33,963 bases of DNA from assembly GCA_050253335.1 (NCBI GenBank), contig JBFWJG010000025.1, positions 1-33,963 on the forward strand, written 5' to 3'. This DNA is from Deferribacterales bacterium. Its GTDB lineage: Bacteria; Chrysiogenota; Deferribacteres; Deferribacterales; Geovibrionaceae. The notes beneath the pieces are model-generated. The model was not told the origin of the DNA, made no database searches, and worked only from the letters and a program-made list of their open reading frames with translations. Shown one piece after another: positions 903 through 32,489 of the stretch. Position 1 is the first letter of the stretch, and each line of letters begins with the position of its first letter. Made by a program: the position numbers and the translations under genes.

Positions 903-1187
903 TTACCTGTACGCCACGTCAAGGAAGGTCATTCCTATGAATATGGCGAGAATTAAAAAACACATGAATACGATTGCCTTGATGAACCTGTTTTCGTATT
1001 TCAGGTGCATGAAAAACATAATTACAAACAGCGATTTCGCAGTGGCCAGCGCAAGCGCCACAACAACCTTGAAATAGCCGAAATCAACCCGTGTGGCTGC
1101 CACTGTGATAAAAGTGAGCAGAAGAAGCACAGCCAGAACGGATGTGAGCAGCTTTACGCTGAGAATGTGACCGTTATGTTCCGACAT
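903..1187 (-). CDS. coxD: Cytochrome c oxidase subunit IV (caa3-type small subunit)
   Basis: Three hydrophobic helices and the ATAKSLFVIMFFMHLKYE motif typical of COX4_pro. Start moved to the ATG at 1187 (MSEHNGH), which has an AAGGAGG RBS upstream. Confidence 0.9.
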   Translation of the reverse strand: MSEHNGHILSVKLLTSVLAVLLLLTFITVAATRVDFGYFKVVVALALATAKSLFVIMFFMHLKYENRFIKAIVFMCFLILAIFIGMTFLDVAYR

Positions 1188-1200
1188 ATCAGACCTCCTT

Positions 1201-1806
1201 CTACAGAACCAGGTAAAACAGCGGGAAAAGGAATATCCACACCAGATCCACAATGTGCCAGTAAAGTCCGGCGTTTTCCAGCTTTACAAAATCTTCCCTG
1301 TTGATGATGTCCCTTTTGAGGAAGTTCACCATGAACCCGAGAACAATCATGCCTATTACTACGTGTATGCCGTGCAGTCCCGTCATGATGTAATACAGGC
1401 CGAAGAATATGTTCTCCCCGTGAGGCAGTTCCGCCAGATGCGGGGAGGTGGGGTATATCCCGTGGCTGAACTTCGCTTTCCACTCAAAAAACTTGTTCAC
1501 AAGGAACATGAGCGCCATGGCGATGGTGAGCCATGTGAAAAGCACGGCCTTCTTTTTATCTCCTTTCTGTATGAAGGAGATGGCAAGAGCCACAAAATAG
1601 CTGGACACAAGCAGAACAACCGTGTTCAGCGTGCCGATTATCACATCAAGCTCCTTTCCGCCGTCATGAAACTCCTGCGGGTACTTGGAGAGAAAAACCG
1701 AGTACAGGACAAAAAGCCCGCCGAAGAGCAAAACTTCCGTGAAAAGGAAGAGCCACATGCCGAGCTTTGCGCCGTGGTAGTCTTTATGAACGTGGTTATT
1801 ACTCAT
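1201..1806 (-). CDS. coxC: Cytochrome c oxidase subunit III (short form)
   Basis: Motifs GMWLFLFTEVLLFG, NTVVLLVSS, TGLHGIHV and GLYWHIVDLVWIFLFP. Confidence 0.96.
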   Translation of the reverse strand: MSNNHVHKDYHGAKLGMWLFLFTEVLLFGGLFVLYSVFLSKYPQEFHDGGKELDVIIGTLNTVVLLVSSYFVALAISFIQKGDKKKAVLFTWLTIAMALMFLVNKFFEWKAKFSHGIYPTSPHLAELPHGENIFFGLYYIMTGLHGIHVVIGMIVLGFMVNFLKRDIINREDFVKLENAGLYWHIVDLVWIFLFPLFYLVL

Positions 1807-3424
1807 CTCTTTCTACCCCCTTGTAGCTGTAGGGTTTGCCTGATGTATCGGGCTCTTTGTCGAAGTTGAGCAGAGGAGGAGGCGAGGGGACCTGCCATTC
1901 GAGAGTCGCCGCGCCCCAAGGGTTGCGGCCGACTTTTTTGCCGCTTCTTATTCCTCTGTAGAGGTTAAAGAACATAAGCAGAATGCCCGCTGCCAGTATC
2001 CACGAGCCGACAGTGGAGATGAAATGCCCCGTCTGATACTGCGGAAGGTAGTCGTAGTATCTTCTGGGCATACCCTCAAGACCGATGACGAACAGGGGCA
2101 GATAAAGCATGTTGAAGCCGATAAAAAGGATGCCGAATGCCCAGTTAGCTATGCTCTTGTTGTACATCCTGCCGTAGAACTTGGGCAGCCAGAAGTGCAG
2201 GGCGGCAAATAAACCGAAGCCTGTTCCGCCGAAGATTACATAATGGAAGTGGCTCACGACGAAGTAGGTGTCGTGCACGTGTACATCTGTTCCGGCGGAG
2301 CCGAGCACAAGACCCGTAAGACCGCCGACGGAGAACAGGAATATGAAGCCGAGCGCGTAAACCAGCGGCGGCTCAATGATTATCGAACCCTTATAGAGCG
2401 TTGCCACCCAGTTGAAAACCTTGATGGCTGAAGGTATTGCGACTATGAAAGTAAGCAGTGAGAATATCAGCACCGCCGTATCGCTCATTCCGGAGGTGAA
2501 CATATGATGCGCCCAGACCAGAGAGCCTGCGAAGGCTATCATAAGGCTTGAGACCGCTATGGCCTTGTAGCCGAAGATGCTCTTGCGGGCAAAAGCGGGA
2601 ATAATGTCGCTCACCACGCCCATTGCGGGGAGGATCATGATATACACCGCCGGATGTGAATATATCCAGAAAAGGTGCTGGTAAAGAATCGGGTCGCCGC
2701 CTTTGTTGGGGTCAAACAGACCTACTCCCAGAACCCTTTCCACAAAGATAAGCAGAACCGTTATCCCCAGAATCGGGGTGGCGAGAACCTGAATCCACCC
2801 TGTGGCGTAAAGAGACCAAGTGAAAAGGGGTATCTTTGTCCATGTTAGGCCGGGTGCGCGGAGACGGTGGATTGTGGTGATGAAGTTTATCCCTGTGAGG
2901 ATGGAGGAAAAGCCTAGAACAAAGACCGCCAGCACCGCCACATTTACGTTTGTGGTGGTGAACTCGCTGAACGGCACATAGAATGTCCATCCGGTATCCG
3001 GCGCTCCGCCCCCTGTGAAGAGAGAGAAGAGGGCGGCAACTGTTCCGATGAGGTACAGCCACCATGAAAACAGGTTAAGCCGCGGAAAAGCCACATCCTC
3101 CGCGCCGAGCTGAATGGGGAGCACAAGGTTCCCTATTGCTGCGGGGATACTGGGGATCACCACTATGAATATCATGATCACCCCGTGGAGAGTGAAGACT
3201 GCGTTGTATGTCTGGGCTTCCATGATTGTTCTGCCCGGCGCAATGAGCTCAAGCCTTATGAGCAGGCCAAGGCACACGCCGACAATGAACATTCCCAGAA
3301 CCATGTAGAGATACATAAGCCCGATGCGCTTATGATCCGTGGTTAAGAGCCAGCTCATGATCCCTTTTCTGTGGCTGCCCGAGTCTTCGAAAAAACTCGG
3401 TAAAGCAGTCGAATTATTACTCAT
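1799..3424 (-). CDS. coxA: Heme-copper oxidase subunit I, type A2
   Basis: Motifs TTDHKRIG (D-channel), TLHGVIMIF, TGWTFY, GGDPILYQHLFWIYSHPAVY (YS motif), VWAHHMF, HDTYFVVSHFHYV and GMPRRY. Confidence 0.98.
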   Translation of the reverse strand: MSNNSTALPSFFEDSGSHRKGIMSWLLTTDHKRIGLMYLYMVLGMFIVGVCLGLLIRLELIAPGRTIMEAQTYNAVFTLHGVIMIFIVVIPSIPAAIGNLVLPIQLGAEDVAFPRLNLFSWWLYLIGTVAALFSLFTGGGAPDTGWTFYVPFSEFTTTNVNVAVLAVFVLGFSSILTGINFITTIHRLRAPGLTWTKIPLFTWSLYATGWIQVLATPILGITVLLIFVERVLGVGLFDPNKGGDPILYQHLFWIYSHPAVYIMILPAMGVVSDIIPAFARKSIFGYKAIAVSSLMIAFAGSLVWAHHMFTSGMSDTAVLIFSLLTFIVAIPSAIKVFNWVATLYKGSIIIEPPLVYALGFIFLFSVGGLTGLVLGSAGTDVHVHDTYFVVSHFHYVIFGGTGFGLFAALHFWLPKFYGRMYNKSIANWAFGILFIGFNMLYLPLFVIGLEGMPRRYYDYLPQYQTGHFISTVGSWILAAGILLMFFNLYRGIRSGKKVGRNPWGAATLEWQVPSPPPLLNFDKEPDTSGKPYSYKGVERDE

Positions 3425-3446
3425 ACATTTTCCTCCCGAGTTCCCT

Positions 3447-4271
3447 TTACTTTTTCTTCTTTTTGCCGCCGAAAACGAGGAAGGCGGCGAAGGCGGCGAG
3501 GGTGAGGATAATTACCACACCGGAAACCTTCATTATATCAAAGACATATTTCTTTCCTTCCTGATCATAGCTGAAGCAGAAGGAGACAATTTTTTTAACG
3601 GAGAGTCCCGGTGTTTCGTTTTCTGCCTCAACCATGGCCATAGTAAGCTCAAAGGGGAGAATTTTTGTTCCGTAAAGGTAGCGTATAAGCTTTCCCGATT
3701 CCGAAACCGCAAACACCGCCACAGGGTGGGCGAAGTCCTTGTCCACTCTTTTGAACCTGTATCCTGCGGAATCCAGAAAAGCCTTGATGTTCTCTCTTGT
3801 TCCGGTGAGGAATATCCAGCCCTCAGGAGCTATTTTTCCGTCTGCCGCTTTGAGATAGTTGCGCTTCTTGTCTGCGGCAATTTCCGGAGTGTCGTTTTCG
3901 TCAAAGCTGAATGAAATAACCTGATAGGTTTTTCCCGCCTCCATCTTTATCTGAGGAATGATGGAAGAGAGGTTTGACTGAAGGAAGTTGCAGACATTCG
4001 GACAGTTGAAGTAAACAGGCGCAATGATAGTCGGCTTGTCGATAAGTTCGCGCATGGTTACTGTTCTGCCTTCGGAGTCAGTGAAAGGGATGTCCAGCGC
4101 TATCACTTCGCCGAGCTTTTCGGTCACTCCCGCTTCACTTTGCGCTTCCGGAGCCGGTTCCTTGTGGACGTGCTCTTCCTTTTTGTCCCCGTCTGCGTTA
4201 TGGCCATGCTCCGCCCCCCATAGAGGGAGGCAGAGCGCGAATACTGCTAATGTAATTAAAAGCTTTTTCAT
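3447..4271 (-). CDS. SCO1/SenC family copper chaperone
   Basis: Signal peptide, His-rich N-terminus, CPNVC (CxxxC), WIFLTG, conserved His (FAHP) and a C-terminal TM anchor. Directly upstream of coxA. Confidence 0.93.
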   Translation of the reverse strand: MKKLLITLAVFALCLPLWGAEHGHNADGDKKEEHVHKEPAPEAQSEAGVTEKLGEVIALDIPFTDSEGRTVTMRELIDKPTIIAPVYFNCPNVCNFLQSNLSSIIPQIKMEAGKTYQVISFSFDENDTPEIAADKKRNYLKAADGKIAPEGWIFLTGTRENIKAFLDSAGYRFKRVDKDFAHPVAVFAVSESGKLIRYLYGTKILPFELTMAMVEAENETPGLSVKKIVSFCFSYDQEGKKYVFDIMKVSGVVIILTLAAFAAFLVFGGKKKKK

Positions 4272-4280
4272 GCGGATTTA

Positions 4281-4583
4281 TCAGAACTTGGACATATAGT
4301 CCGCGAGGGCTTTCATGTCCTCGGGAGAGAGGCCCGCGGCCATTCTCTGCATTGTTGCTTTCTTTTCCCCGCCGTAGGAGCCGTCCTTATAGCCGGCGAG
4401 CTTCTTCTCAAGGTCGGCCGGGCTCTGTCCCTTTATTGCAGCCTTAGCTCCTGCGGGAACCTTGGAGCCGTCCGCCCCGTGACAGGCTTTACACTTATTG
4501 TAAAGAGCCGCTCCGTCGGAAGCTGCAAATGCCATTGCGAAAGTTGTTACGATAAACGCGGATGCTAAAAGTGTTTTTTTCAT
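4281..4583 (-). CDS. Periplasmic monoheme cytochrome c (c553-like)
   Basis: Start at ATG 4583 (MKKTLLASAF, GAGGTGG RBS). Signal peptide, CKACH, and YKDGSYGG..KATM carrying the likely axial Met, as in c553. Confidence 0.93.
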   Translation of the reverse strand: MKKTLLASAFIVTTFAMAFAASDGAALYNKCKACHGADGSKVPAGAKAAIKGQSPADLEKKLAGYKDGSYGGEKKATMQRMAAGLSPEDMKALADYMSKF

Positions 4584-4751
4584 TTTTCCACCTCTTATGA
4601 AAAGAAAGTACTGGTTTAATTCTACACTCAAAAGGTGTTAAATCAAATGGGATTTTCATTGTTTTACAAGATTAATGGGATATGAGAGCAGGTTTATAAC
4701 CGGATTTGTGAACTTTTCCCGTTTATGCGGTACATAGCTTAAACAAGGAGG

Positions 4752-5225
4752 ATGAGTATGAGGTTAAGTGTTATTTTGGCGGCGGTTTTCATGTTTGTCG
4801 CAACAGGGGCATTTGCCGCGGCGCCTGCTCTCTCAGGCTGTGAGACAGTCTCTGTTAAGACAGGAAAGGAGTCCGCGAAGGAGATCTCCCGTCTGCACGG
4901 AAAGGAGATTGAATTCGAAAGCTCATATGTCGCTGAATACAAATGCGGTAACGACCCTGTGATTATCTGGGCTTCCTTCTCAAAAACAAAGGAAGAGGCA
5001 AAAACGCTTTTTAAGCTGATGGATGATAAAATGCCCGCCAGTCAGGCGTTCAGAAACCTTATGAGGATGAAGACCGACGGCTTTGATGTGGCCTACGTCA
5101 CGGGGATGGGGATGGACAACTACTATTTTCTGGACGGAAAGGGGAACTACTGGCTTGCGGCAACGGGCAGGGACACCTTCACGCTTCTTAAAAAGCTCAC
5201 CGGAACTCTGAAACAGAGCCGTTAA
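4752..5225 (+). CDS. Hypothetical exported protein
   Basis: AAGGAGG RBS, Sec signal peptide ending AFA and a normal soluble composition. Divergent from the cytochrome c gene; its 3' end overlaps the citG 3' end. Confidence 0.75.
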   Translation: MSMRLSVILAAVFMFVATGAFAAAPALSGCETVSVKTGKESAKEISRLHGKEIEFESSYVAEYKCGNDPVIIWASFSKTKEEAKTLFKLMDDKMPASQAFRNLMRMKTDGFDVAYVTGMGMDNYYFLDGKGNYWLAATGRDTFTLLKKLTGTLKQSR

Positions 5226-6024
5226 AAAGCATAAGCGCGCAGCTGACTGCCAGAAGGTCGGCTGCGCCGCCCATTGTGAGTCTTATTGATTTGTAGTATT
5301 CGTTTCTTTCTTCCAGCCACGGGATGTGGGAGTCCGATTTCAGAAGCTCATGGAGCGTCCGCCCGTCATTTCTGATGATTTCAAGCCCTTCCATGCCGCA
5401 CCTGTGCAGGGCTGTTGTGTCCTCCACCGTCCGCATGAGGGCGGCGAGCCCTGCGAACCTTGTCCGTTCGGTGCATCCGCTTTCTGCGTATTCTTTTTCC
5501 ATGGCGGGGAGTGCACTCTCAAACACGGAGGGCAGACCGTTCAGACATTCGCCTGTTATTCCGCCTGCGCCGTATATCCGCCGTGCGGTTTCGCCGTTGG
5601 ATTCCGGCAGGGCGGATGTGAAGAACCCTTCTGATATTTCTTTTATCTCCCTGCGGAGGTCATCCCCTCTGAACGAGGCGAACAGAACAAGACCGCTGAG
5701 GAAAATGTAGCCCTTGTGGGCGTTGCTTCCGCAGATCTCATGCATTCGTTTCTCCGCCGCAAGTCCGGCAGAGCGCAGTTCGGCAATGTCCGCACCGCTC
5801 ATTGCGACTTCGGCAAGTTCATGATAATACAGAGGAAGAACTGAGACTGAGAGGAGCATCCCCGCATAGGAGAGATCCTCATGTGAGCCGCTGTCAGACC
5901 TGTCCACAAGGCCGGGCTTGGGGGAGAGGTCAAGCTCCGCCTTTGCCCCCTGAGTGAGGCAGTCAGAAATTTTTGTTATGAAAGCCGCTGAGGAGTTCTT
6001 CAGCGGCGCCGACAGCTTCCGCAT
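5197..6024 (-). CDS. citG: Triphosphoribosyl-dephospho-CoA synthase
   Basis: Motifs ELDLSPKPGLVD, GSHEDL, NAHKGYIF, EDTTALHRCG and TMGGAADLL. Last gene of the cit operon; the start is uncertain. Confidence 0.93.
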   Translation of the reverse strand: MRKLSAPLKNSSAAFITKISDCLTQGAKAELDLSPKPGLVDRSDSGSHEDLSYAGMLLSVSVLPLYYHELAEVAMSGADIAELRSAGLAAEKRMHEICGSNAHKGYIFLSGLVLFASFRGDDLRREIKEISEGFFTSALPESNGETARRIYGAGGITGECLNGLPSVFESALPAMEKEYAESGCTERTRFAGLAALMRTVEDTTALHRCGMEGLEIIRNDGRTLHELLKSDSHIPWLEERNEYYKSIRLTMGGAADLLAVSCALMLFNGSVSEFR

Positions 6025-6463
6025 GGGTGTGTTTCTCCGTTCTGATGCAGTCGGCGGCGCTTTCGCCGCAAATGAGGCATTTTCTTCTGCCCATGCCCGC
6101 TTCCGCCCGCCCGAATGCCTTTGTTCCGCTGTATATGTCTATGTCCAGAAGACGGCAGAAGGGGTGAAGCTCTTCCAGAGTCACCCCTGCCTTTTTCATT
6201 TCAGAGGGGTTAAGGGAGGTTTTCATGAAAACCGCTCTGCCTGCCGCATCCTGTACTGTTCTTACGGTTTCTGCGCCTGTGAGCCTTGTCAGCTCATTTT
6301 CAGCCCATGAGATCAGCGCGTCCGCCTTTGTCTTATCCTCCCCCGGCATGTTGGAGGAGATGACAATCAGGGAGCCGCCGCCGTTGCTTAGTTCGGCAGT
6401 CAGGCTCCATCTGGCGTCACGGGCAGCGAGCAGTTTATTCCTTAACTCTTCTGACCGTGTCAA
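5963..6463 (-). CDS. citX: Apo-citrate lyase phosphoribosyl-dephospho-CoA transferase (holo-ACP synthase)
   Basis: Motifs LLAARDAR, NMPGEDK, LEELHPFCRLLDIDI and RKCLICGESAADCIR. TTG start overlaps the citF end. Confidence 0.92.
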   Translation of the reverse strand: MTRSEELRNKLLAARDARWSLTAELSNGGGSLIVISSNMPGEDKTKADALISWAENELTRLTGAETVRTVQDAAGRAVFMKTSLNPSEMKKAGVTLEELHPFCRLLDIDIYSGTKAFGRAEAGMGRRKCLICGESAADCIRTEKHTHAEAVGAAEELLSGFHNKNF

Positions 6464-7973
6464 TTATGCTTCCGTCCCTGTATTCCACAAGGGCGATTAT
6501 GTCATCTGTAAATTCCACAGGGCGCGGCACGCCTGTTATCTGGGTTATCTCTCTGCGGAGGTCGTTTATATCCTTAACGGGCATCTTCGCTTTTATCAGT
6601 TCCTTTTTGAGGTCTTCATGCTTGCTGTTCACCGCTATGCCCCGTTCGGTGACTATCACGTCTATGTTCTCGCCGGGGGTGGTGACTGTTGTAACCTTAT
6701 CAAGGATAATGGGCAGACGGCCTCTTATGGAGGGGGCAACTATTATGGCAAGCTTCGCGCCCGCCGCCGTGTCTGTGTGCCCGCCTGTGTTGTGGAGGAG
6801 ATAGCCGTTTGACTCTGTGTTCACGTTTACGTTGAAGTCGACATCCACTTCCGTAGCGCCGAGGATAACCGCATCCAGCCTGTTCACCACCGCCCCGCAG
6901 TTGAACGGGTTGGCGTAGGTGTCTGCGCTTATCTCCTGATGGCGCATGTTTCTGCTGATGGATTCCACGGCTTTAAGGTCGAAGCACTGAACATCAAGCA
7001 GGGTTTCAAACAGCCCTTCCTCAAGCATATCAACGAAATATCCCGTGATTCCTCCGGAGCCGAATGAACCTTTTATCTTCTCCTCAAGCATCATGCGGCG
7101 CACATTGTCCGCAACGGCGAGGGATGTTCCTCCTGCACCGGTCTGGAAGGAGAAACCGTTTTTAAGCAGGCCGGAAGCTCTGATCACCTCGGCGGCGTAT
7201 TTTGCTATCATTAGCCCTATGGGGTCTTTGGTTACCCTTGTGGTGGTGGAGACAATCTTCTTGGGGTCGCCTAGTGTTTCTACCTGCACCACGAAGTCAA
7301 CGCATGTCTGGGGTATGCTCACCGGACATACGGGGTAGGGGACGAGGTTGTCCGTAACGGCGACGACGGTTTTCGCGTAGCGCGCGTCAACATGGGAATA
7401 ACCGAGGCTTCCGCAGGCGGACGGGCCGGAATAGCCGTTCATATTGCCGTATTCATCACAGCAGGGTGCGCCTATGAAAGCCACATCCACAACAACCTCT
7501 CCGGTCATCATGGATCTTGCGCGCCCGCCGTGGCTCCGCACTATTATGGGGCATTCCAGCTCGCCTCTGGAGGCGGCTTCGCCCACAGGGCCGTTCACGC
7601 CGCACTCAAGGCTTGTTATCACCCCTTTTTTTATGTAGGGGATAATCTCCGCATGCACGGGGTGCACCGAGCTTGAGGCGATTGTTATATTGCGTATGCC
7701 GAGGGCGTCTATTTCTTTCACCACCTGATTGAGGATGCTGTCCCCGTTTCTCAGGTGGTGGTGTGTTGCTATTGTCATTCCGTCTTTCAGTCCGGAGGCG
7801 GTTATCGCCTCACGCAGGCTGCCCAAAAGCTTCTTTTCTCCGGGGCGGACTATCTTAACGGGGCGGGCGTATTCTGTTCCCTGCGGGGTGAGCAGGGCGG
7901 CGGAGTTGTATGGGGTGCGTTTTATCCCGTTGAAAACCTCGGGGACTAATCTGCCGAGACTATTTAGCGCCAT
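6435..7973 (-). CDS. citF: Citrate lyase alpha chain (ACP/CoA transferase)
   Basis: Motifs LKDGMTIATHHHLRNGD, RSHGGRAR, CGSLGY, FSFQTGAGG, ATEVDVDFNVNV and VEYRDGSIID. Confidence 0.96.
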   Translation of the reverse strand: MALNSLGRLVPEVFNGIKRTPYNSAALLTPQGTEYARPVKIVRPGEKKLLGSLREAITASGLKDGMTIATHHHLRNGDSILNQVVKEIDALGIRNITIASSSVHPVHAEIIPYIKKGVITSLECGVNGPVGEAASRGELECPIIVRSHGGRARSMMTGEVVVDVAFIGAPCCDEYGNMNGYSGPSACGSLGYSHVDARYAKTVVAVTDNLVPYPVCPVSIPQTCVDFVVQVETLGDPKKIVSTTTRVTKDPIGLMIAKYAAEVIRASGLLKNGFSFQTGAGGTSLAVADNVRRMMLEEKIKGSFGSGGITGYFVDMLEEGLFETLLDVQCFDLKAVESISRNMRHQEISADTYANPFNCGAVVNRLDAVILGATEVDVDFNVNVNTESNGYLLHNTGGHTDTAAGAKLAIIVAPSIRGRLPIILDKVTTVTTPGENIDVIVTERGIAVNSKHEDLKKELIKAKMPVKDINDLRREITQITGVPRPVEFTDDIIALVEYRDGSIIDTVRRVKE

Positions 7974-8883
7974 AGATCACCTCGTCTGAAATTTCATAGT
8001 CAATAAGACCCAAAGACGCGGCGGTCTTCAGCACGTTTGATGAACGCTTCACTATGGGCGCGTCTATCATTTTTCCTTTGAGCGAGATAACTCCCGTTCC
8101 CATCTCCCTTGCCTTGAGGATCGCATCTATCACCTCAAGGGCGAAGTCTATCTCCTCCTTAGTGGGGGCGAAAACCTTGTGCACTATGTCTATCTGGCGG
8201 GGGTTGACGAGGGATTTCCCCGTAAAGCCCAGCTTCTTGCTGAGGCGGACTTCCTTCTCGAAGCTTTCCTCATCGTTCACATCGGGGAAGATGGTGTCTA
8301 TGGCCTGAATGCCCGCCGCCTTCGCCGCCCAGATAACACGGGTTCTGGCGTGGAAGAGCTCCTCGCCTGTTTTGCTTCTTTCTATGCCCATGCTCGCTGT
8401 GTAGTCCTCCGCGCCGAAGGCGAGGGCTATGACCCTTGAGGAGCATTTGGCTATTTTTATGCAGTTGATCACACCCTGCGCGCTTTCGATGGAGGGGATA
8501 ATCTTGAATGTTCCCAGTTCAATGCCGAAGTTTTCCTCGCACTCGGTGAGGAAGGTGTCGAGCCTTTCCACAATCTCGGGCGTGTCCGCCTTGGGCAGGC
8601 GCACACCGTCCGGCAGGGCGGGAAGAACCGTTCTGAGGTCGTCATAACCCCATTCGGTGTCCAGAGGGTTTATGCGGTAGAAGATCTCTTTGTTTCTGTC
8701 TTTGTAGTTTTCAAGAAAACTGCGCACAAGGAGCCTTGCGGCGTCTTTTTCGTTGAGTGGCACAGCGTCTTCAAGGTCTATGAAAACACAGTCGCAGTTG
8801 AAAATGGGGATGTTCTGAAGCATGGACGGCATGTTGCCCGGAACATAAAGCAGTGTTCTTCTTAAAGCCGCGGCGTTACTCAT
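7960..8883 (-). CDS. citE: Citrate lyase beta chain (citryl-ACP lyase, HpcH/HpaI family)
   Basis: Motifs RRTLLYVPGN, IDLEDAV, IESAQG, GAEDY, GFTGKSLVNPRQI and GKMIDAPIV. Start set to ATG 8883, which has a GAGG RBS. Confidence 0.95.
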   Translation of the reverse strand: MSNAAALRRTLLYVPGNMPSMLQNIPIFNCDCVFIDLEDAVPLNEKDAARLLVRSFLENYKDRNKEIFYRINPLDTEWGYDDLRTVLPALPDGVRLPKADTPEIVERLDTFLTECEENFGIELGTFKIIPSIESAQGVINCIKIAKCSSRVIALAFGAEDYTASMGIERSKTGEELFHARTRVIWAAKAAGIQAIDTIFPDVNDEESFEKEVRLSKKLGFTGKSLVNPRQIDIVHKVFAPTKEEIDFALEVIDAILKAREMGTGVISLKGKMIDAPIVKRSSNVLKTAASLGLIDYEISDEVIYGAK

Positions 8884-9352
8884 GTTCTTCCTCAATGAAT
8901 ATTGTGGCTGTTCCGCCTGTTTTGGAGTAGTGGCGTTCTATGCCTTCTGTGTGGAGCTCGGAGATCATTATCTCGCAGGAGGCGAAAACCTTCGCGGAGA
9001 ATAAGTGCCCGCCGATGACCTCGCCGGATGATTTTGACATCTGTATGTGCAGGTGGCAGTCTGTTCTGCCGGATGCGTCAGGGAAGAAGTTTCCGCTCAG
9101 CCCCAGCAGTTCCAGCGGGCCTTCGATATTGTGCACGGTCATTCTGGGAACAGTGATGGGAAGCTTGGCGCCCGCTTTTATTCCCCTGAACTTCACATCC
9201 GTGACAGAGCCCAGAGCGGAAGTTACAACGGCGTGATCTATACCTATCTCCCTCACTGTCGCGGCGAGTTTTTCAACCAGATCCTCGCCCGGCTGGATTT
9301 TAATAATGAAGGTGCGCAGGAGTTTCGCTTCTTTGTACCAGACGGATTTCAT
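8876..9352 (-). CDS. DUF296 / PPC-domain protein (putative Zn-binding His triad)
   Basis: Motifs IQPGEDLV, SALGSV, ELLGLSGN and HLH...GEVIGGHL...CEI, characteristic of PF03479. Overlaps the citD stop (ATGA) and the citE start. Confidence 0.88.
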   Translation of the reverse strand: MKSVWYKEAKLLRTFIIKIQPGEDLVEKLAATVREIGIDHAVVTSALGSVTDVKFRGIKAGAKLPITVPRMTVHNIEGPLELLGLSGNFFPDASGRTDCHLHIQMSKSSGEVIGGHLFSAKVFASCEIMISELHTEGIERHYSKTGGTATIFIEEEHE

Positions 9353-9618
9353 GCTTTCTGCTCCTTTGCCCTGTTTATCACAGCTTCAACGCGTGCGGCT
9401 ATGGCGTAGTCCAGAGCGCCTCTGTCCTTTATGCGGAAAATTCCCGCCGTGATCCCCATGCGGCTGATAACCTCGGTTATCTTCGCCCTGATGAGGTGTT
9501 CGTACTGTTTTGCCACTGTGGAATCAATCTCGATGACGAGTTCATCCCCCGGCTCCGCGAAAACCATTATATCGCTGGACTGCATTGTCCCTGCCTGCGC
9601 TCTTCTGGCTATTTTCAT
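9349..9618 (-). CDS. citD: Citrate lyase acyl carrier protein (gamma chain)
   Basis: AGTMQSSD (prosthetic-group Ser), STVAKQY and DRGALDYAIAARV. Confidence 0.95.
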   Translation of the reverse strand: MKIARRAQAGTMQSSDIMVFAEPGDELVIEIDSTVAKQYEHLIRAKITEVISRMGITAGIFRIKDRGALDYAIAARVEAVINRAKEQKA

Positions 9619-9631
9619 TTTCGACCGTCCT

Positions 9632-10645
9632 TTATTTTGAGCTTTTGCAGAATTCTTCGGCTCTTGCCCGCAGCATGTCCCTGTTTTTCACAAGGTATGC
9701 ATATGTTGTTTCGGGTACAAGGTTTTTCATTTCGTCATCTTTTCCGGCAAAGAGGAGCCTGCGCACTGTGGATGCGCTTATGAGGGTTTCGCCGGAGGCT
9801 TTTCTCTGAATTTCCACCAGCTTGATGCCGTATTCGGGCATGACTCGCTTCATCGCCTCGTTGTAAAGAGAGGTGAACTCGCACAGGGGTTCCTCTCCGA
9901 CGTATCTTTTTATTATATTAAATGCAGGGGCGAAATGCTGTCCGAAAATGCGCAGGTCGGTTTCTATCTGCTGTTTTGTAACCTGTTCCTTGTTTTTGAG
10001 GAAGTATGAGGGGAAGGTTATGCGGCTTACCGCGTAGTCGCCGGAGGGGATGACATAGACATTTTTAAGATCCGCTGTGCCGCGCCTTACAAGGTCGAGC
10101 CTGTCCTGATAGGGGACGACTGACTTATCCTCCTGCACCACGAAAACGTAAACAAAGTCAGATTCAGCGGCGGCTGTTTCTATAAGGTGTCTGTGCCCCT
10201 TTGTGAAGGGGTTGCAGTTCATGACAAGGCCTGAGTTCCTGCCGTGGCGGGCCAGATTTTTCAGGTTTGCCAGATAATTTTTTATGCTTTTGCCGAATTC
10301 CAGAACGGCAACCTTATCGGTTGTGCATAATCTGGTGAAGTTCAGGCTTTCAAAATGAAGTGCGTACATGGGCTTCGTGAATACGAAAAGGTGATCGCAA
10401 CCTGCCTGAAAAGCGTCTGTTATGAGTGCGTTTATGATTTCGGAGAATGCGCCTGTGCTCTGATATTCCTCATCCACAGCGACCATTTTCAGAATGTTAT
10501 GGTCTCTGGCGCCTGCGGCAGTGAGGCGGCCGTCTTCATAGATGCCCAGAAAAACTTCGTGGGCGGGGTCATAGTCAAGCCCTGCGTCTTTCAGAAGGCT
10601 GACTGCTTCGCGGATCTGTGCTTCGCCTGTGATATAGCTGTGCAT
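9632..10645 (-). CDS. citC: [Citrate (pro-3S)-lyase] ligase
   Basis: N-terminal GNAT-like domain, plus MNCNPFTKGH, FVVQED, SRITFPSYF, RYVGEEP and ISASTVR. Confidence 0.96.
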   Translation of the reverse strand: MHSYITGEAQIREAVSLLKDAGLDYDPAHEVFLGIYEDGRLTAAGARDHNILKMVAVDEEYQSTGAFSEIINALITDAFQAGCDHLFVFTKPMYALHFESLNFTRLCTTDKVAVLEFGKSIKNYLANLKNLARHGRNSGLVMNCNPFTKGHRHLIETAAAESDFVYVFVVQEDKSVVPYQDRLDLVRRGTADLKNVYVIPSGDYAVSRITFPSYFLKNKEQVTKQQIETDLRIFGQHFAPAFNIIKRYVGEEPLCEFTSLYNEAMKRVMPEYGIKLVEIQRKASGETLISASTVRRLLFAGKDDEMKNLVPETTYAYLVKNRDMLRARAEEFCKSSK

Positions 10646-10756: not shown

Positions 10757-11080
10757 TTAACGTGCGTTTGCTGTAATGTTTTCCGAAAGTATTTCAATGA
10801 CTTCCACACCTCCGCAGCTTGATTTGATTATTTTGTTTACTGAGATTTTGAGGCTGTACTCTCCGGCTCTGTCAAAATTCAGGATGAGGCTTCCGTTGTC
10901 CTCCGATGCGTGCACCCCTTCCTCCGGTTTTACGCTCACAGTGTAAAATTCGCCTCCGCCGGTCTTTGCCTGCGGTATTTTCACATGTGTTTTCACTGCT
11001 GTTCCCGCCGCTGTCTCGTAATCCGCCGCGCACAGGGTTAGTGAAGCAAGTAAAAAGAAAAGGATTAGGAATGCTTTCAT
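10757..11080 (-). CDS. Hypothetical exported protein
   Basis: AGGAG RBS, signal peptide MKAFLILFFLLASLTLCA, beta-rich-looking mature part and a KSSCGG motif near the C-terminus. Confidence 0.65.
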   Translation of the reverse strand: MKAFLILFFLLASLTLCAADYETAAGTAVKTHVKIPQAKTGGGEFYTVSVKPEEGVHASEDNGSLILNFDRAGEYSLKISVNKIIKSSCGGVEVIEILSENITANAR

Positions 11081-11150: not shown

Positions 11151-11726
11151 CTATAAATCCTTCTCGTTCAGAACGAGTTTGGGTCTGGACGCTTCCACGA
11201 ACCTTGTGGAGGGGTTCAGCTCCTCAAATTTTTCAAACCCCGCCGGATACTGCTTCACATAGTCGGGGAGTTTATCGCCTGTTATTTCTGTCAGGCTAAG
11301 CGCACCTGCTGGGCAGCCCTGAACACAGGCGGGGAGAAGCCCTGCGTCAATACGCTCAACGCACATACTGCATTTTTCCGCACGCTGAAGCACTGTGTTG
11401 TCCGCAGGAGCTCCGTATGAACAGGCTTCTATGCACTGGCGGCAGTACACGCATTTGTCGGCGGAGTGGACAACTATGCCGTCCTTCTCCCTCTTCACAT
11501 GCGCCCCGACCGGGCACACTTCCACGCACACGGGTGATGCGCAGTGGTTGCACGCCAGAGAGTAAAAGGCTCTGTCCCTGTGCGGGTAGTCCTTCTGAGC
11601 GAGGGGCTGAAGCTTTCTCCATACCACGCCTTTTTCCTGATGGTACTGGTTTTTACATGCCATGGCGCAGGAGTAGCAGCCGATGCACTTTTTGGAATTT
11701 ACAAGGAATGCGAGCTGTTTTTTCAT
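11151..11726 (-). CDS. 4Fe-4S electron-transfer subunit (DmsB/PsrB-like, four clusters)
   Basis: Sixteen Cys in four groups: CIGCYSCAMAC, CNHCASPVCVEVCP, CVYCRQCIEAC and CSMC...CVQGCP. Confidence 0.94.
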   Translation of the reverse strand: MKKQLAFLVNSKKCIGCYSCAMACKNQYHQEKGVVWRKLQPLAQKDYPHRDRAFYSLACNHCASPVCVEVCPVGAHVKREKDGIVVHSADKCVYCRQCIEACSYGAPADNTVLQRAEKCSMCVERIDAGLLPACVQGCPAGALSLTEITGDKLPDYVKQYPAGFEKFEELNPSTRFVEASRPKLVLNEKDL

Positions 11727-11738
11727 ATCCGTTTCTCC

Positions 11739-14003
11739 TTACGCCTTGGCTATTTCTGCGAACTGGTCGTGTATGGCAACGCCCGGTGCGCCTGTTTTGA
11801 ATGTTCCCATGTCCGCTTCGGCATCGTCCACCAGCTCCTGAACATTGAAGTCTGTTTTGCCGCCGAACCATGCCTCATAAAGCACGAGGACATCCTCCGC
11901 TATTATGTCTGTGATTCTCGCCTTTACGGTTACACTGCCTGTTTTGTTGGTGAGCTTCACCGTTTCGCCGTCTTTTATCCCTTTCTTAGCCGCCGCCTTG
12001 GGGTTGATGTATACATAAGGCTCAGGGTTGAAGTCGCGCATGTAGTCAAGGTTGTTGAACTGAGAGTGCAGGCCGAACTGCGTGTGCGGGGTGAGCACAC
12101 GGAACCTGTCGTATGCCTTTCTCGGCGCTTTATATTCGGGGAGCTTGGAGTGTCCGTATTCCGCCGCGAGGTCTGAGCTGAACTCGTATTTCCCTGACGG
12201 GGTGCCGAATTTCAGGTCGTTCCATGACGCGCTGGAGGGGAGCTGAGCCTTGCGGGGGCCTTTTTTCAGGTCTTCCCAGCTTTTGATTCCGAACAGCTTG
12301 TGGATTCCGTCGTTAAACTCCTTTTCCATCCAGACTCTGGTGTCTGTTATCTGCGGGAATGTGCAGGAACCCGCCTCAAGCTCGTTCATTTTTTTGGAGA
12401 GCATGGCGGCTATCTGGAGGTCGGATTTGGCTTCGTACTGCTCCGGTATTGCTTTCTCATTAAGCCCTATCCAGTAATGCCAGTAGGAAACATTGACCGT
12501 GTATTCCTCAAACAGAGTGGTGCAGGGGAGAACAATGTCGGAATTTTCAACAGTCTCGTTGAAGAACTGATCCACGGTTACAACCATCTCCAGCTTGTCG
12601 AACGCCTTTTTCAGCTTGTTGCGGTCAAAGTCCTGCGCAAACGGGTTTTTGCAGGCAACCCAGAGGAGCCTTATGGGCGGTTCGTTTGTGGTGAGGATTG
12701 ATTCTGCTATCTTGTTGATGTTTATCGTTCTGTCGGAATAGGCCGCCTGTTTGCTTTCTGTTTTGTCAAACTCGCTCTTGATTTTGTCCTTGCCGAGGTA
12801 GCCCACTGAGCCTTCCGGCTGTTTCTGCACCATGGCGTTATAGTTGAAGCCCCATGTGTGAAGGTGGCCGTATCTCGCTCCGCCTCCTTCAACGCCTATG
12901 TTGCCTGTCATAGCCGCGACAGCGTCAATGGCGCGGACATTCACCCCGCCGTTCGCATGGCGCTGGAGGCCGTAGCCCGCCCAGATTGTGGCGGGTTTTG
13001 CTGATGCGAACTCCTCTGCAATCTGTCTGATTATTTTTGCGGGAACGCCGGATTTTTTGGCTGCCCACTCGACTGTCACATTCTTTTTCAGGTATGCGGC
13101 AAATTCTTCAAAGCCTTTGCTGTGCTTTTCCACAAACTCTTTATCAACAAGCTTTTTGTCCAGAATATGCCTTGCCATTCCGAGGGCGAGCGAGCCGTCT
13201 TCGGATGTTTTCACCCTTATGTAAAGGTCCGCCTTTGCCGCTGTCTGGGTCATTATGGGGTCGATTACCACAACCTTTGCGCCCCTTTCCTGAGCTTCAT
13301 AGACAAACTTCATGGAGTGTACGGAGTTCCACGCGGGGTTGCCGCCCCAGATTATTATATATTTCGACTTGACCATATCTTCGGGGTCGTTGCACCACAT
13401 GTTGCCCATGTCAAAGTTCTGGGCATCTATTCCCGCAGGCCAGCAGGGTGTGCCCACGAACCTTGTGGTGTAGCCGAGGGAGCTCATCATCCCCTCAACA
13501 CCGTAGTGGGTTATGCCGAAGTTGCCGGAATATTTGTCCAGAGCCATTCCGAGGAGTGAGCCGTCCTTCTTTTTGATCTCAAGGATTTTGTTTGAGATCT
13601 CTGTCAGCGCCTCATCCCAGCTTATCCTTTTCCAGTTGCCCGTGCCCCTGCCTATCTGCTTCATGGGGTATTTTATCCTGTCGGGGCTGTAGACCCTTCT
13701 GGGATAGCTGAAACCCTTCACGCAGAGCGCGCCTCCGGTGAATGTTGACTCCTGCGCACCCTCAACGAACTTGAGCACGCCGTCTTTTACGTATGACTTT
13801 ATGCTGCATGTGTCGTAGCAGTTTCTGGGACAGGCATTGCGGAAAGTTTCGTATCCGCCTTCATAATGCGTTCTTTCCCATTCTGCCGCCTGAAGAATGC
13901 CCGAGGGGAGCGACGAGAGTATGCCCGCCGCTGCCGCACTTTTGAGAAACGAACGTCTGCTCAGGGGGCAGAGCGCCGTTTCCTTCAATAAATCAGTCTT
14001 CAT
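11739..14003 (-). CDS. Tat-exported molybdopterin (DMSO reductase superfamily) oxidoreductase catalytic subunit, substrate unknown
   Basis: Tat motif SRRSFLK, N-terminal Fe-S motif CPRNCYDTC...LCVKG, DRIKYPM, ISWDEAL, putative Mo-ligand Cys in GTPCWPAG, WGGNP and TPHTQFGLHSQF. Start ATG 14003 (AAGGAG RBS) overlaps the chaperone stop. Confidence 0.94.
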   Translation of the reverse strand: MKTDLLKETALCPLSRRSFLKSAAAAGILSSLPSGILQAAEWERTHYEGGYETFRNACPRNCYDTCSIKSYVKDGVLKFVEGAQESTFTGGALCVKGFSYPRRVYSPDRIKYPMKQIGRGTGNWKRISWDEALTEISNKILEIKKKDGSLLGMALDKYSGNFGITHYGVEGMMSSLGYTTRFVGTPCWPAGIDAQNFDMGNMWCNDPEDMVKSKYIIIWGGNPAWNSVHSMKFVYEAQERGAKVVVIDPIMTQTAAKADLYIRVKTSEDGSLALGMARHILDKKLVDKEFVEKHSKGFEEFAAYLKKNVTVEWAAKKSGVPAKIIRQIAEEFASAKPATIWAGYGLQRHANGGVNVRAIDAVAAMTGNIGVEGGGARYGHLHTWGFNYNAMVQKQPEGSVGYLGKDKIKSEFDKTESKQAAYSDRTININKIAESILTTNEPPIRLLWVACKNPFAQDFDRNKLKKAFDKLEMVVTVDQFFNETVENSDIVLPCTTLFEEYTVNVSYWHYWIGLNEKAIPEQYEAKSDLQIAAMLSKKMNELEAGSCTFPQITDTRVWMEKEFNDGIHKLFGIKSWEDLKKGPRKAQLPSSASWNDLKFGTPSGKYEFSSDLAAEYGHSKLPEYKAPRKAYDRFRVLTPHTQFGLHSQFNNLDYMRDFNPEPYVYINPKAAAKKGIKDGETVKLTNKTGSVTVKARITDIIAEDVLVLYEAWFGGKTDFNVQELVDDAEADMGTFKTGAPGVAIHDQFAEIAKA

Positions 14004-14551
14004 ACTTTCTCCTTTGACATCACCATGGATGTCACCTCGTTTTTGATCCATCCGTTAAGAAGATTAAGCACATGCACAACCGCCGATGATTCATCCGCAT
14101 GTTCCTTTGCGCGTTCCACGAAGCGGGGAATCCACAGATACATATGCAGTGCCGTAAGCTGTTCATAGAGTTCCGTGAAGTTTCCGTCCGCCTCTTTCAG
14201 GCGGCTGATCAGACAGCAGGCGTCAAGCTCCGCCGGAAGCAGATCTTCCGGCATTCTGCCCTTGGCGGTGAGGCTGAGGCCTGCATTTTCGTATATTGAT
14301 TTGACTTTTTCTGTGATTTCGCCGTTGATGCGCCCTTCAGGGTCAAGATAAACAGAAGCCGCCATGGGAGCCTTGGGCGGCATGGGGCCTATGAAAAGCC
14401 TGTTGAACAGGAACTCCTCCTCATCCCAGTTGATTCCGCTGTCTGCTCCGCTTTCTGCCTGTGTGATGCGTGCGTATGCTTCCTGCATTTTTTCTTTTGT
14501 GCCGTAATGAAAAAAATCCCGGAAGGCTTCAATCAGTCCAATTGAATCCAT
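14000..14551 (-). CDS. TorD/DmsD-family redox enzyme maturation chaperone
   Basis: FNRLFIGP..PKAPMAASVY, a PEDLLPAEL variant of PxDHxxxEL, and HMYLWIPRF. Immediately upstream of the Mo enzyme. Confidence 0.85.
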   Translation of the reverse strand: MDSIGLIEAFRDFFHYGTKEKMQEAYARITQAESGADSGINWDEEEFLFNRLFIGPMPPKAPMAASVYLDPEGRINGEITEKVKSIYENAGLSLTAKGRMPEDLLPAELDACCLISRLKEADGNFTELYEQLTALHMYLWIPRFVERAKEHADESSAVVHVLNLLNGWIKNEVTSMVMSKEKV

Positions 14552-17695: not shown

Positions 17696-20053
<2,358 letters not shown>

Positions 20054-30104: not shown

Positions 30105-30791
30105 CTATATGCTCATTCTCCTGAAAATCCGTTCCGGTCTGCCCACTGTTCCGTAGTCTATGTCGGCGTAGAGAAAGCCGGAGGCGAGCAGATATTCCAG
30201 ATAGCGTCTGGCTGTGTTGCGGCTGGCGTTAATTTTTTTGCCCACATCCTCGGCGGAGTAACCTTCTGCTCCTTCCTCCTCGAACACGGCGCATATCTTT
30301 CTCAGGGTTATGGGGTCTATGCCCTTGGGGAGGCTGTTTTCATCCTGTGCCTCCGAAACGGGGTGAATGAGCCTGTCTATCATCTGCTGTTCAAACACCG
30401 AGTTTTTCATGAGCTCCGTGCGGTATGTGCGGAATTTTTCCAGCGATGCCTTGAACCTGTCGAATATCACAGGCTTCACAAGGTAATCAAACGCTCCGCC
30501 GCGGAGAGCTTCCTGCAGTGAGCCCGCCTCTTTTGCCGCGGTGATCAGTATAACATCCACGGATTTCCCCTTTTCCCGCATTTTTTTCAGAAGCTGCATC
30601 CCGTTTCCCTCAGGGAAAAAGAGATCAAGAAGCACAAGCTCCGGCTCCAGCACGTCCACCATCTCCTCGCCGTCCGGCAGGCTGTTTGCGATGCCTATTA
30701 CCTCAAAGCCTTCGACCTTTTCGGTGAAGCGCTTGTGAAGCTCCGATATTTTGATATCGTCCTCAACTATTACCGTTCTTATTTTCTTCAT
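30105..30791 (-). CDS. dcuR: CitB/DcuR-family response regulator
   Basis: Receiver domain (IVEDD, LLDLFFPEGNG, ITAA, YLVKP) and CitB-type output LPKGIDPITL...SRNTARRYLEYL...YGTVGRPER. Confidence 0.88.
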   Translation of the reverse strand: MKKIRTVIVEDDIKISELHKRFTEKVEGFEVIGIANSLPDGEEMVDVLEPELVLLDLFFPEGNGMQLLKKMREKGKSVDVILITAAKEAGSLQEALRGGAFDYLVKPVIFDRFKASLEKFRTYRTELMKNSVFEQQMIDRLIHPVSEAQDENSLPKGIDPITLRKICAVFEEEGAEGYSAEDVGKKINASRNTARRYLEYLLASGFLYADIDYGTVGRPERIFRRMSI

Positions 30792-32385
30792 GATACATTT
30801 CCTTTGGTATTGTCACTCTGAAGGATACGCCGCCCAGCCTGCTTTTTGCCATGCCTATGGAGCCTCTCAGCTCCATGAGGGCGTTCTGCACAAGATAAAG
30901 CCCCACGCCTCTGTTTTCGCCCTTGGTGCTTACCCCTTTCTGGAAGATGTCTTCTATTATGTCAGGCTCAAGCCCGCCGCCTGAATCCTCAACCTGAAAG
31001 ACAATGCTTCTGCCCGAATCATTCATCGTGAGCAGAACCTTTTTCACAGGGGAGTCAATCACAGCGTCAAAGGCGTTGTCCAGTATGTTGCCGAGCACGG
31101 TGACTATCTTCTCCCTGTCTATTCTGGCGGGTATGTCTGTCATTCGGCTTTTCTCCGCTATGGCGAAGTCTATTTTCAGTTCCCTTGCCCTGCTGTGTTT
31201 GCCGATGATCAGAGCTGAAACAATCGGGTCAGGCACATTTGCGTTCACGAAGCTTATCATCTCCTCATGTATTCTGGTTTCCGAGAGAATAAGCTCCAGC
31301 GCCTCCTGATATGCCTCAAGCTGGATAAGTCCCGCCACTGTGTGGAGCTTGTTGGAATATTCGTGGGACTGCACACGGAGCATGTCCGAATATTTTTTAA
31401 TACGGTTAAGCTCCTGCGCGAGAAGGGTTATCTCATTCTTCCGCCGGAAGGTGACAACAGCTCCCTGCACCCTGCCCATATGCATGACCGCCATTATGTT
31501 GGTTAGAAGCTCAACTCCGTTCAGGGTCATGGAGGTGTCTTCCATGTTGGTTTTTGTCCTCATCACATCCGCGGAGTATTCCGGCGGGAATATTTCGCTT
31601 ATGTGGAGGCCTATATAATCCTTTTCAAGGGAAAGAACCCTTATGGCGTTCTTATTGATCAGCCTTATGCGGTTTTCGGTGTTAACGGCTATTATTCCTG
31701 CCCTTATAGAATCTATTATCGCGTTTCTTTCAAGGAAGAGATCCGCTATTTCCGCAGGCTCCAGACCGAGGGTTATTCTCTTCTGGTGATTGGCTATCAG
31801 CACCGCCGTGCCGAGTCCGGTCGCAAGCATCATAAAAACAAAGAGCAGAGGCTTTTTCTGATGCTCAAGGATTGTTTCCCGCACCCGTTCCTTGAGATAA
31901 CCCACGGCAACGAAACCGACTATGCGCCCCTCGTGGTAAACAGGAGCAATTCCGCGGACGGAAGGACCCAGCGTTCCCACCGCTTCCGAGACATACGCCT
32001 CTCCGTATTCTGTTGCGCGGTCGGTGTCGTCCCCCTGAAATTTTTTGCCGATATTGGCGGGATTAGGGTGTGAAAGCCTGATGCCGGAATTATCCGCAAC
32101 AACAACATAGGCGGCGTTTGTTCTTTTTCTGATTTCCTCCGCGGCTGCCTGCACCCGCCCGCCTTCATCTCTTCCCGCAGCCAGTGACTGCTGTATGAGG
32201 GGCATGGTGGTCATTGTCTGGGCGATATTAAGCGCCTTTTCGCCTATCTGAAATCTGAGAAAGTCCGCAACCATGCCGGAGAATATAAGACCGCTGATCA
32301 CAAGCTGAAGCATCAGCACCGCGAAAATCATCATCAGCATCTGTATGCGTATGGGACGGGAGGAGAAGAAACGCTTCATGTTCAC
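30763..32385 (-). CDS. dcuS: CitA/DcuS-family sensor histidine kinase
   Basis: TM - sCache (RLSHP...GTLGPSVRG) - TM - GLEPAEI - PAS - LRVQSHEYSNKLH - GNILDNA - DSGGG - STKG..RGVGL. The start could be GTG 32385 or ATG 32379. Confidence 0.9.
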   Translation of the reverse strand: MNMKRFFSSRPIRIQMLMMIFAVLMLQLVISGLIFSGMVADFLRFQIGEKALNIAQTMTTMPLIQQSLAAGRDEGGRVQAAAEEIRKRTNAAYVVVADNSGIRLSHPNPANIGKKFQGDDTDRATEYGEAYVSEAVGTLGPSVRGIAPVYHEGRIVGFVAVGYLKERVRETILEHQKKPLLFVFMMLATGLGTAVLIANHQKRITLGLEPAEIADLFLERNAIIDSIRAGIIAVNTENRIRLINKNAIRVLSLEKDYIGLHISEIFPPEYSADVMRTKTNMEDTSMTLNGVELLTNIMAVMHMGRVQGAVVTFRRKNEITLLAQELNRIKKYSDMLRVQSHEYSNKLHTVAGLIQLEAYQEALELILSETRIHEEMISFVNANVPDPIVSALIIGKHSRARELKIDFAIAEKSRMTDIPARIDREKIVTVLGNILDNAFDAVIDSPVKKVLLTMNDSGRSIVFQVEDSGGGLEPDIIEDIFQKGVSTKGENRGVGLYLVQNALMELRGSIGMAKSRLGGVSFRVTIPKEMYHEENKNGNS

Positions 32386-32425
32386 CTTTTCTTTTCTTAA
32401 ATAATATTACGCCCGCGGCTTAAAT

Positions 32426-32466
32426 AAAATAAAAAAAAGGACACGGCGCAGTTCTGCCGTGTCCTT
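32426..32466 (-). terminator. Rho-independent terminator of the dcu transporter gene
   Basis: AAGGACACGGC-N8-GCCGTGTCCTT followed on the minus strand by a long T-tract. Confidence 0.85.
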
Positions 32467-32489
32467 CAGCGCAGGAGGGCTTATCTCTG

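Follow-up and report, generated by a model that had tools for sequence, protein, structure and literature searches.

The window, as we call the whole 33,963-nt stretch of Deferribacterales DNA analysed here, carries a citrate lyase operon on its minus strand, with the gene order citC-citD-PPC-citE-citF-citX-citG. The third gene encodes a PPC/DUF296 protein of 158 aa. The features of the operon are as follows.

9632..10645, minus strand: citC, citrate lyase ligase, which acetylates the ACP thiol (TIGR00124, 287 bits, over cut-off; PF08218)
9349..9618, minus strand: citD, acyl carrier protein (ACP), gamma subunit (TIGR01608 and NF009726, over cut-off)
8876..9352, minus strand: PPC/DUF296 protein of the cit-linked clade (PF03479; H100/H102/H116 and R56; clade-typical loop at 60-70; from alignments, model and synteny)
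7960..8883, minus strand: citE, citryl-ACP lyase, beta subunit, of the PPC-linked clade (PF03328; TIGR01588, 345 bits, under the cut-off of 443; tree)
6435..7973, minus strand: citF, ACP transferase, alpha subunit (TIGR01584, 661 bits, over cut-off)
5963..6463, minus strand: citX, holo-ACP synthase (PF03802 over cut-off; TIGR03124 under)
5197..6024, minus strand: citG, triphosphoribosyl-dephospho-CoA synthase (PF01874 over cut-off; NCBIfam CitG/MdcB models under)

All six core cit genes were matched by Pfam; CitC, CitD and CitF scored above their citrate lyase equivalog cut-offs, and CitE, CitX and CitG below. The PPC gene is the sole PF03479 match in the source genome. Its product matched this family at 93.5 bits (gathering cut-off 25) and no second Pfam family, the acetolactate decarboxylase (ALDC) family PF03306 not being reached, and carries the motif C99-H100-L-H102 ... 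G114-G115-H116-L. The gene overlaps citD by 4 nt (ATGA) and, if citE starts at its likely ATG at 8883, citE by 8 nt. These overlaps, the placement between citD and citE and the HLH...GGHL triad were seen as described in the original prediction, made from the DNA of the window. In E. coli K-12, citD directly precedes citE, the order that the prediction took as canonical, and the PPC insertion is therefore real. The prediction also read the overlap with the ACP gene as translational coupling to a stoichiometric partner. This sign proved unspecific: five of the six junctions within the operon overlap, as do citD and citE of E. coli (4 nt), so that the overlaps of the PPC gene carry little information. 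Inside the operon no oad, malic enzyme or transporter gene was found, as had been claimed for the oad genes and the transporter.

Several other features were seen in the window. A DcuA/DcuB-family transporter with a DcuS/DpiB-like kinase and a DcuR/DpiA-like regulator (30105-33815) lies about 20 kb from the operon; this set is a candidate for carboxylate uptake and control and was not found in related cit loci. The operon is flanked by two open reading frames (10757-11080 and 4752-5225) without a Pfam or NCBIfam family, which among the loci examined had matches only in the closest relatives. A molybdopterin oxidoreductase with a TorD-like chaperone and an Fe-S subunit occupies 11151-14551. By eye, 903-4631 resembles a heme-copper oxidase cluster with SCO and cytochrome c, and 17696-19924, 7 kb upstream, a monomeric isocitrate dehydrogenase. 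A single RNA run yielded five short contigs, located on citD/citC, citE, citF (two) and 4030-4516; none lay inside the PPC gene, which is uninformative at their depth of about 4-6. A promoter and terminator scan remained at chance level.

The source names read 'PPC domain-containing DNA-binding protein', but a transcriptional regulator or other DNA-binding protein is very improbable here. No regulator is conserved beside the operon, and DNA binding would tolerate the loss of the metal site described below. Against this, the gene sits in the middle of the operon, Pfam detected the PCC domain alone, with no helix-turn-helix, and the protein is net acidic (17 K+R versus 20 D+E). In plant AHL proteins it is a separate AT-hook that is credited with binding DNA.

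A PPC clade in fixed synteny with one type of citrate lyase

A first protein search retrieved 261 relatives at E 1e-10 or better, with identities of 57-86% among the 120 listed; the closest named relatives were Deferribacterales. Profile searching against 50% representatives revealed a steep drop in score from the cit-linked clade to other PPC proteins, and trees built with a quick method separated the two with a support of 100. Cultured hosts among the matches include Desulfuromonas acetoxidans, Malonomonas rubra, Seleniivibrio woodruffii, Deferribacter autotrophicus and Mesoterricola sediminis. Plasmid-borne PPC matches were 27-30% identical (12 listed of 38) and fall outside the clade, and a search of the ESM Atlas returned generic PCC clusters only.

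Synteny was counted per set of loci, and the counts are not summed because the sets overlap. The order citD-PPC-citE was found in 7/7 loci of the genome collection, in 13/13 loci of Deferribacterota and in 40/40 loci of Desulfuromonadia, 39 without and one with a gap of about 200 nt. Among the best 80 of 203 metagenome loci, 74 displayed this order, five were cut on one side by the contig end, and one (L015) read PPC-citE-citF with no citD upstream; citD and/or citE thus lay beside the PPC gene in 80/80. No cit gene was present within about 1.5 kb of distant PPC genes (0/38 loci). A neighbourhood survey of PF03479 homologs, as the original prediction had proposed, therefore revealed a synteny that is neither unique to this genome nor random. 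Among the loci examined, no other gene was conserved around the operon beyond close kin.

In these loci, mean identities to the proteins of the window were 58% for PPC, 61% for CitD, 70% for CitE and 72% for CitF, with 43% for CitC, 42% for CitG and 35% for CitX; PPC conservation is thus near that of CitD and above that of CitC, CitG and CitX, an estimate biased upward by the choice of loci through PPC. Pairwise identities of PPC and CitD correlated moderately (rho 0.46), which is undiagnostic for neighbouring genes. Some loci depart from the usual content: L084 has citD-PPC-citE without citC or citF, L227 and L248 are cit clusters without citG, and L071 (901-3128) has a Pfam-confirmed, split monomeric isocitrate dehydrogenase directly before citD and lacks citC.

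The CitE proteins encoded next to PPC form one clade (support 99), and every examined genome with this lyase type carries the PPC gene. Of 68 Deferribacterota genomes, 14 have a CitF over the cut-off, and 13 of these carry the PPC gene; the fourteenth (G044, 64% complete) has a divergent lyase and no PPC gene. In Desulfuromonadia, the class of genome G068, CitF was found in 46/201 genomes and the PPC gene in 40 of these 46. The CitF of the remaining six was 43-44% identical to that of the window in the four examined, and in both of the lyases scanned with Pfam the ACP was fused to CitE. A phylum-wide sample of 251 genomes contained the clade in G068 only, together with two other genomes having CitF of another type. 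Plasmid CitF proteins were 48-55% identical (12 listed of 89 records), and CitE of the window is 43% identical to E. coli CitE. Collectively, these data indicated that in anaerobic respirers a PPC clade of its own holds a fixed position and co-occurs with a distinct clade of ACP-dependent citrate lyases.

Five loci (L215-L219, in G363, G441, G460, G404 and G491) encode a lyase of a second type, in which a long CitE precedes a divergent CitF. In L215 and L217 Pfam placed the ACP at the CitE N-terminus, and in all five citC, citX and citG are not adjacent. Their neighbours are isocitrate/isopropylmalate dehydrogenase and aconitase genes, or genes for a fumarase-type dehydratase, a flavoprotein and PrpD, and this lyase type possibly acts on another acid. 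Two further loci, L177 (G268) and L269 (a Cupriavidus record), have a lone citF with no adjacent citD; the Cupriavidus locus was accordingly dropped as a betaproteobacterial proxy. An acidic CitE tail was present in 26/26 PPC-linked loci, 9/9 related proteins and 0/7 other lyases. It was discounted as a docking site, since the codons of its E-V-I-Y-G end coincide with the ribosome site and start codon of citF.

The separate clade of CitE and its score below the citrate lyase equivalog cut-off could also mean that this lyase acts on, or is poisoned by, another compound such as citramalate or a damaged acyl-ACP, with the PPC protein as a repair or side enzyme. Consistent with this, no citrate transporter or sensor is conserved beside the operon, CitMHS being adjacent in one of the annotated loci (L064), and PPC genes of the sister clade occur in catabolic clusters alongside those for aldehyde:ferredoxin oxidoreductases and ABC transporters. 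We consider this explanation unlikely, as CitC, CitD and CitF pass their citrate lyase equivalog cut-offs, the gene order is otherwise that of E. coli, and no conserved neighbour encodes a dehydratase or another pathway enzyme. The sister-clade loci are L170-L173 and L176 (G305, G140, G203, G277 and G222); three of them read aldehyde:ferredoxin oxidoreductase, ThiS/MoaD-like gene, PPC and then a branched-chain-type ABC transporter.

A putative metal pocket and loss of the histidine triad

Structure prediction gave the fold of a PPC protomer (pLDDT 89.6). The model matched solved PPC proteins with Z scores of 16.3-19.1, the best being 2DT4 (Z 19.1; Foldseek E 2e-11). ALDCs were the next structural neighbours (Z 7.8-10.6, rmsd about 5; 133 residues aligned for the top match), in agreement with the fold kinship stated in the original prediction; kinship to PTD012 (1XCR), named in the same claim, was weaker (Z 4.9). 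A weak profile alignment (probability 9%, E 0.0037) placed R56, H100, H102 and H116 onto R145, H194, H196 and H207 of the ALDC 4BT2. In the accessible part of PMC9090609, the three histidines of ALDC are zinc ligands and R145 is a substrate-binding arginine. No counterparts were mapped for ALDC Thr58, Glu65 and Glu253, and no alignment to the ALDC N-domain was obtained; by eye, S49 and E81 are candidates for T58 and E65, but mapping them failed. H100, H102 and H116 are invariant in alignments A1 and A3 (114/114 and 79/79 members), sets collected by their similarity to a query with the histidines and in part by the GGH pattern, which suggests that the metal site matters in most lineages. A metal pocket able to take a small carboxylate is thus plausible in the PPC protein of the window.

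PPC proteins form trimers, the solved members being homotrimeric with bound metal, and CitE also forms trimers. A complex prediction with three PPC copies and CitD scored 0.00, which is evidence neither way.

The profile search of the PPC clade also returned members lacking the histidines. In this branch (that of P0122) all three were kept in 0/121 proteins (120 listed of 565 matches, plus P0123), a sample whose genomes could carry a second, His-bearing copy; most members read Q/E-Y-R at the triad positions. The branch is nested in the PPC clade with a support of 99 and belongs to Acidobacteriota, centred on Holophagae; five members have organism names, two of them from Holophaga and one each from Geothrix, Terracidiphilus and Mesoterricola. 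Fermentation of citrate by Geothrix fermentans yields acetate and succinate. Positions 56, 59, 74, 98, 100, 102 and 116, which held the ligands and the pocket, are relaxed in the branch (entropy ranks 52-96%), R13, P65, R70, C126, E132 and S143 are invariant, and the fold is predicted to be kept. Its sister, L075, lies between citD and citE and has kept the triad but lost R56 and K59.

The sister of the CitE of the L075 group is a clade of 303-aa CitE proteins. In 5 of its 13 members the longest contig had the same size as that of His-less PPC proteins (2,165; 7,834; 8,183; 1,804,791 and 4,432,003 nt), compared with 2/107 among other CitE proteins and 0-4 per 120 in shifted controls. The His-less PPC gene thus appears to share contigs with the same CitE lineage, as judged from matching contig sizes and not from DNA. 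No His-less PPC accession could be paired with a CitE accession, and none of these genes was found in the viral contigs or plasmids searched. A branch that apparently stays with the same lyase after losing its histidines points to a binding or regulatory role independent of metal.

Accessory partner or enzyme

The kinship to ALDC raises the possibility of an enzyme that removes the lyase product, which the original prediction put forward as a soluble oxaloacetate decarboxylase. It would be a biotin-free, Zn-dependent oxaloacetate decarboxylase or enol/keto tautomerase, and its His-less branch a pseudo-enzyme. ALDC is the next structural neighbour after the PPC proteins (Z 10.6, rmsd 5.0), its R145 and histidines align weakly with R56 and the triad, and both characterised relatives decarboxylate beta-keto acids according to the available portion of PMC12337341. 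The one result leaning toward this idea in the genome survey was the scarcity of OadB in Deferribacterota, where an OadB-family gene was found in 3/13 PPC-positive genomes and was absent in 10/13; none was found in the window's genome. Other findings argue against it, and we regard a decarboxylase as rather unlikely. The expected anti-correlation with oadA did not appear, since OadA was over the cut-off in 7/40 PPC-positive and 13/161 PPC-negative Desulfuromonadia, and OadA-like proteins of at least 650 bits were found in 23/40 and 19/161, kin not being independent in either comparison. Nor is there a pathway hole demanding a decarboxylase: the window's genome has other exits for oxaloacetate, with an ATP-type PEPCK, malic enzyme matches at two places and an FAH-family protein, besides a pyruvate-carboxylase-length protein, and the E. 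coli operon is also without oad. The alignment to ALDC has a probability of 9%, and R56 is common in PPC proteins generally (70/132 of a broader set). Oxaloacetate lacks the hydroxyl that the substrates of ALDC and BKGD carry beside the carboxyl they lose. A decarboxylase would drain the reverse TCA cycle should the lyase take part in CO2 fixation, as the accessible text of PMC2996986 proposes. The conserved His-less branch would also be left unexplained.

In three loci (L221, L228 and L230), citC is immediately preceded, on its own strand, by a sodium-pump decarboxylase cluster of the composition carboxyltransferase/gamma/biotin/beta. Their oadB-family genes were rejected as part of an OadA system, as the pump is of the acyl-CoA carboxyltransferase type (L221 and L228 checked).

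The second enzyme proposed earlier was citrate lyase deacetylase (EC 3.1.2.16). As a metal-dependent thioesterase for S-acetyl-ACP, the PPC protein would oppose CitC and switch the lyase off. The PPC gene does trail the ACP gene, starting within 4 nt of it in 113 of 122 loci, but tight gene coupling is general in this operon. Such an off-switch would be useful in hosts that carry citrate synthase; no sequence for EC 3.1.2.16 turned up in our literature search, and the consulted part of PMC12337341 reports that PTD012 is a weak esterase on a nitrophenyl ester. The His-less branch would be incapable of metal-dependent hydrolysis, and the size of the classical enzyme misfits a 17-kDa protomer. 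Altogether, this assignment seems improbable. Citrate lyase deacetylase activity was described in Rubrivivax gelatinosus (Rhodopseudomonas gelatinosa), where the classical enzyme is about 14 kDa with subunits of about 7 kDa.

The comparative sequence evidence favours an accessory or regulatory partner, with both enzyme assignments possible. The original view of an enzyme rather than a DNA-binding protein holds in its second half, DNA binding being unlikely; the His-less branch and the lack of an anti-correlation with OadA oppose a plain enzyme. The PPC protein probably serves citrate lyase as a missing working part or as its switch. More specifically, we tentatively favour, as a reading that may well be right, a dedicated accessory subunit that binds the lyase and has a metal pocket fitted to a small carboxylate, one lineage being able to dispense with this pocket. 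The protein probably trimerises like other PPC proteins, and its conserved job would be binding to the lyase complex, so as to stabilise the lyase or switch it. In most lineages an ALDC-like Zn(His3)+Arg pocket may bind a small carboxylate as a sensor, most plausibly oxaloacetate, perhaps also with slow turnover of the bound acid; in the Holophagae-centred branch the metal ligands would have decayed, with the binding scaffold still under selection. Oxaloacetate inhibits citrate lyase.

The accessory subunit would serve to prevent the lyase and citrate synthase from undoing each other's work. Such a switch makes sense because the hosts also carry citrate synthase and a futile cycle would follow if the lyase ran unchecked. 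Citrate synthase was detected in 7/8 PPC-positive genomes tested but not in the window's own assembly; this is probably an assembly gap, as the assembly is about 0.4 Mb smaller than those of congeners and citrate synthase is present in 3/3 congeners. Points against an accessory subunit are this missing citrate synthase, the citrate lyase of E. coli, which has no PPC gene, and the invariance of the triad outside the His-less branch. A bolder version, possible but doubtful, is a fourth citrate lyase subunit: a trimeric sensor, PII-like in logic, that switches the lyase off, possibly by ACP deacetylation, and reads oxaloacetate or a related acid in a pocket derived from that of ALDC, via zinc in most lineages and via arginine in the Holophagae branch.

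The PPC gene is a widespread seventh cit gene that defines a variant citrate lyase system, apparently undiscussed before. Structures of prokaryotic PPC/DUF296 proteins have been solved since 2006-2009 under PDB titles that state no function, and these proteins are routinely labelled DNA-binding. A clade fixed in one enzyme operon over several phyla puts function within reach of direct tests, the substrates and partners to try being few, and the His-less branch offers a natural loss-of-metal control. Any outcome would be new, be it a fourth lyase subunit or switch, a new type of oxaloacetate decarboxylase or the deacetylase. If the sensor-switch reading were true, no prokaryotic PPC protein would have had a defined job before this one, and acetate-oxidising anaerobes using the citrate synthase route could change over between oxidative TCA cycling and the cleavage of citrate, for fermentation or CO2 fixation. 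The question also bears on the role of the lyase in iron- and sulfur-reducers, for which the reverse TCA cycle is proposed, and not established, in the accessible text of PMC2996986.

Comparison with known systems

In that text, the Geobacter bemidjiensis cit cluster proposed to serve the reverse TCA cycle spans seven locus numbers, Gbem_3862-3856, and has six named genes (PMC2996986); we infer that the seventh is the PPC gene, which is unmentioned in the accessible article and in the 15 supplement texts searched. The Deferribacter papers PMC6896113 and PMC13186404, in their available parts, discuss only ATP-citrate lyase and citrate synthase, and one clade member is named from Deferribacter autotrophicus. 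DUF296, PPC and AF0104 do not occur in the accessible part of PMC12337341, and the available parts of PMC8516083 and PMC4968806 added nothing. Outside subscription journals, our search found no paper discussing PPC/DUF296 (Gbem_3860) with citrate lyase, the one hit being an unrelated table.

AF0104 (2H6L), PH0802 (2DT4) and BT_1116 (3HTN) have the same fold as the PPC protein (Z 17.6-19.1, rmsd 2.2-2.9) at about 30% identity or less; the HxH...GGH motif is common to all, and the three PDB titles give no function. The cit-linked clade differs from other PPC proteins in an insertion at 60-70, in having S143 and T150 at positions most often held by D and E elsewhere, in its fixed place in cit operons and in its His-less sub-branch.

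The ALDCs 4BT2 and 6J92 have a related fold (Z 9.5-10.6, rmsd 5.0), with the three histidines and Arg145 aligning weakly, but they are two-domain chains of about 235 aa, at 13-15% identity to the single 158-aa domain studied here. C11orf54/PTD012 (1XCR), a beta-keto-L-gulonate decarboxylase with a His3-Zn site and an ALDC-related fold (PMC12435205), bears out the beta-keto-acid decarboxylase activity cited in the original prediction. It is a DUF1907 protein of 313 aa from another pathway and needs H217 and R263, residues specific to it, according to the available portion of PMC12337341.

The canonical citCDEFXG system of E. coli has the same six genes in the same order, with 28-48% identity to the proteins of the window. 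The system of the window differs from this canonical form in its extra PPC gene, its separate CitE clade and its lack of a linked citT or DpiAB.
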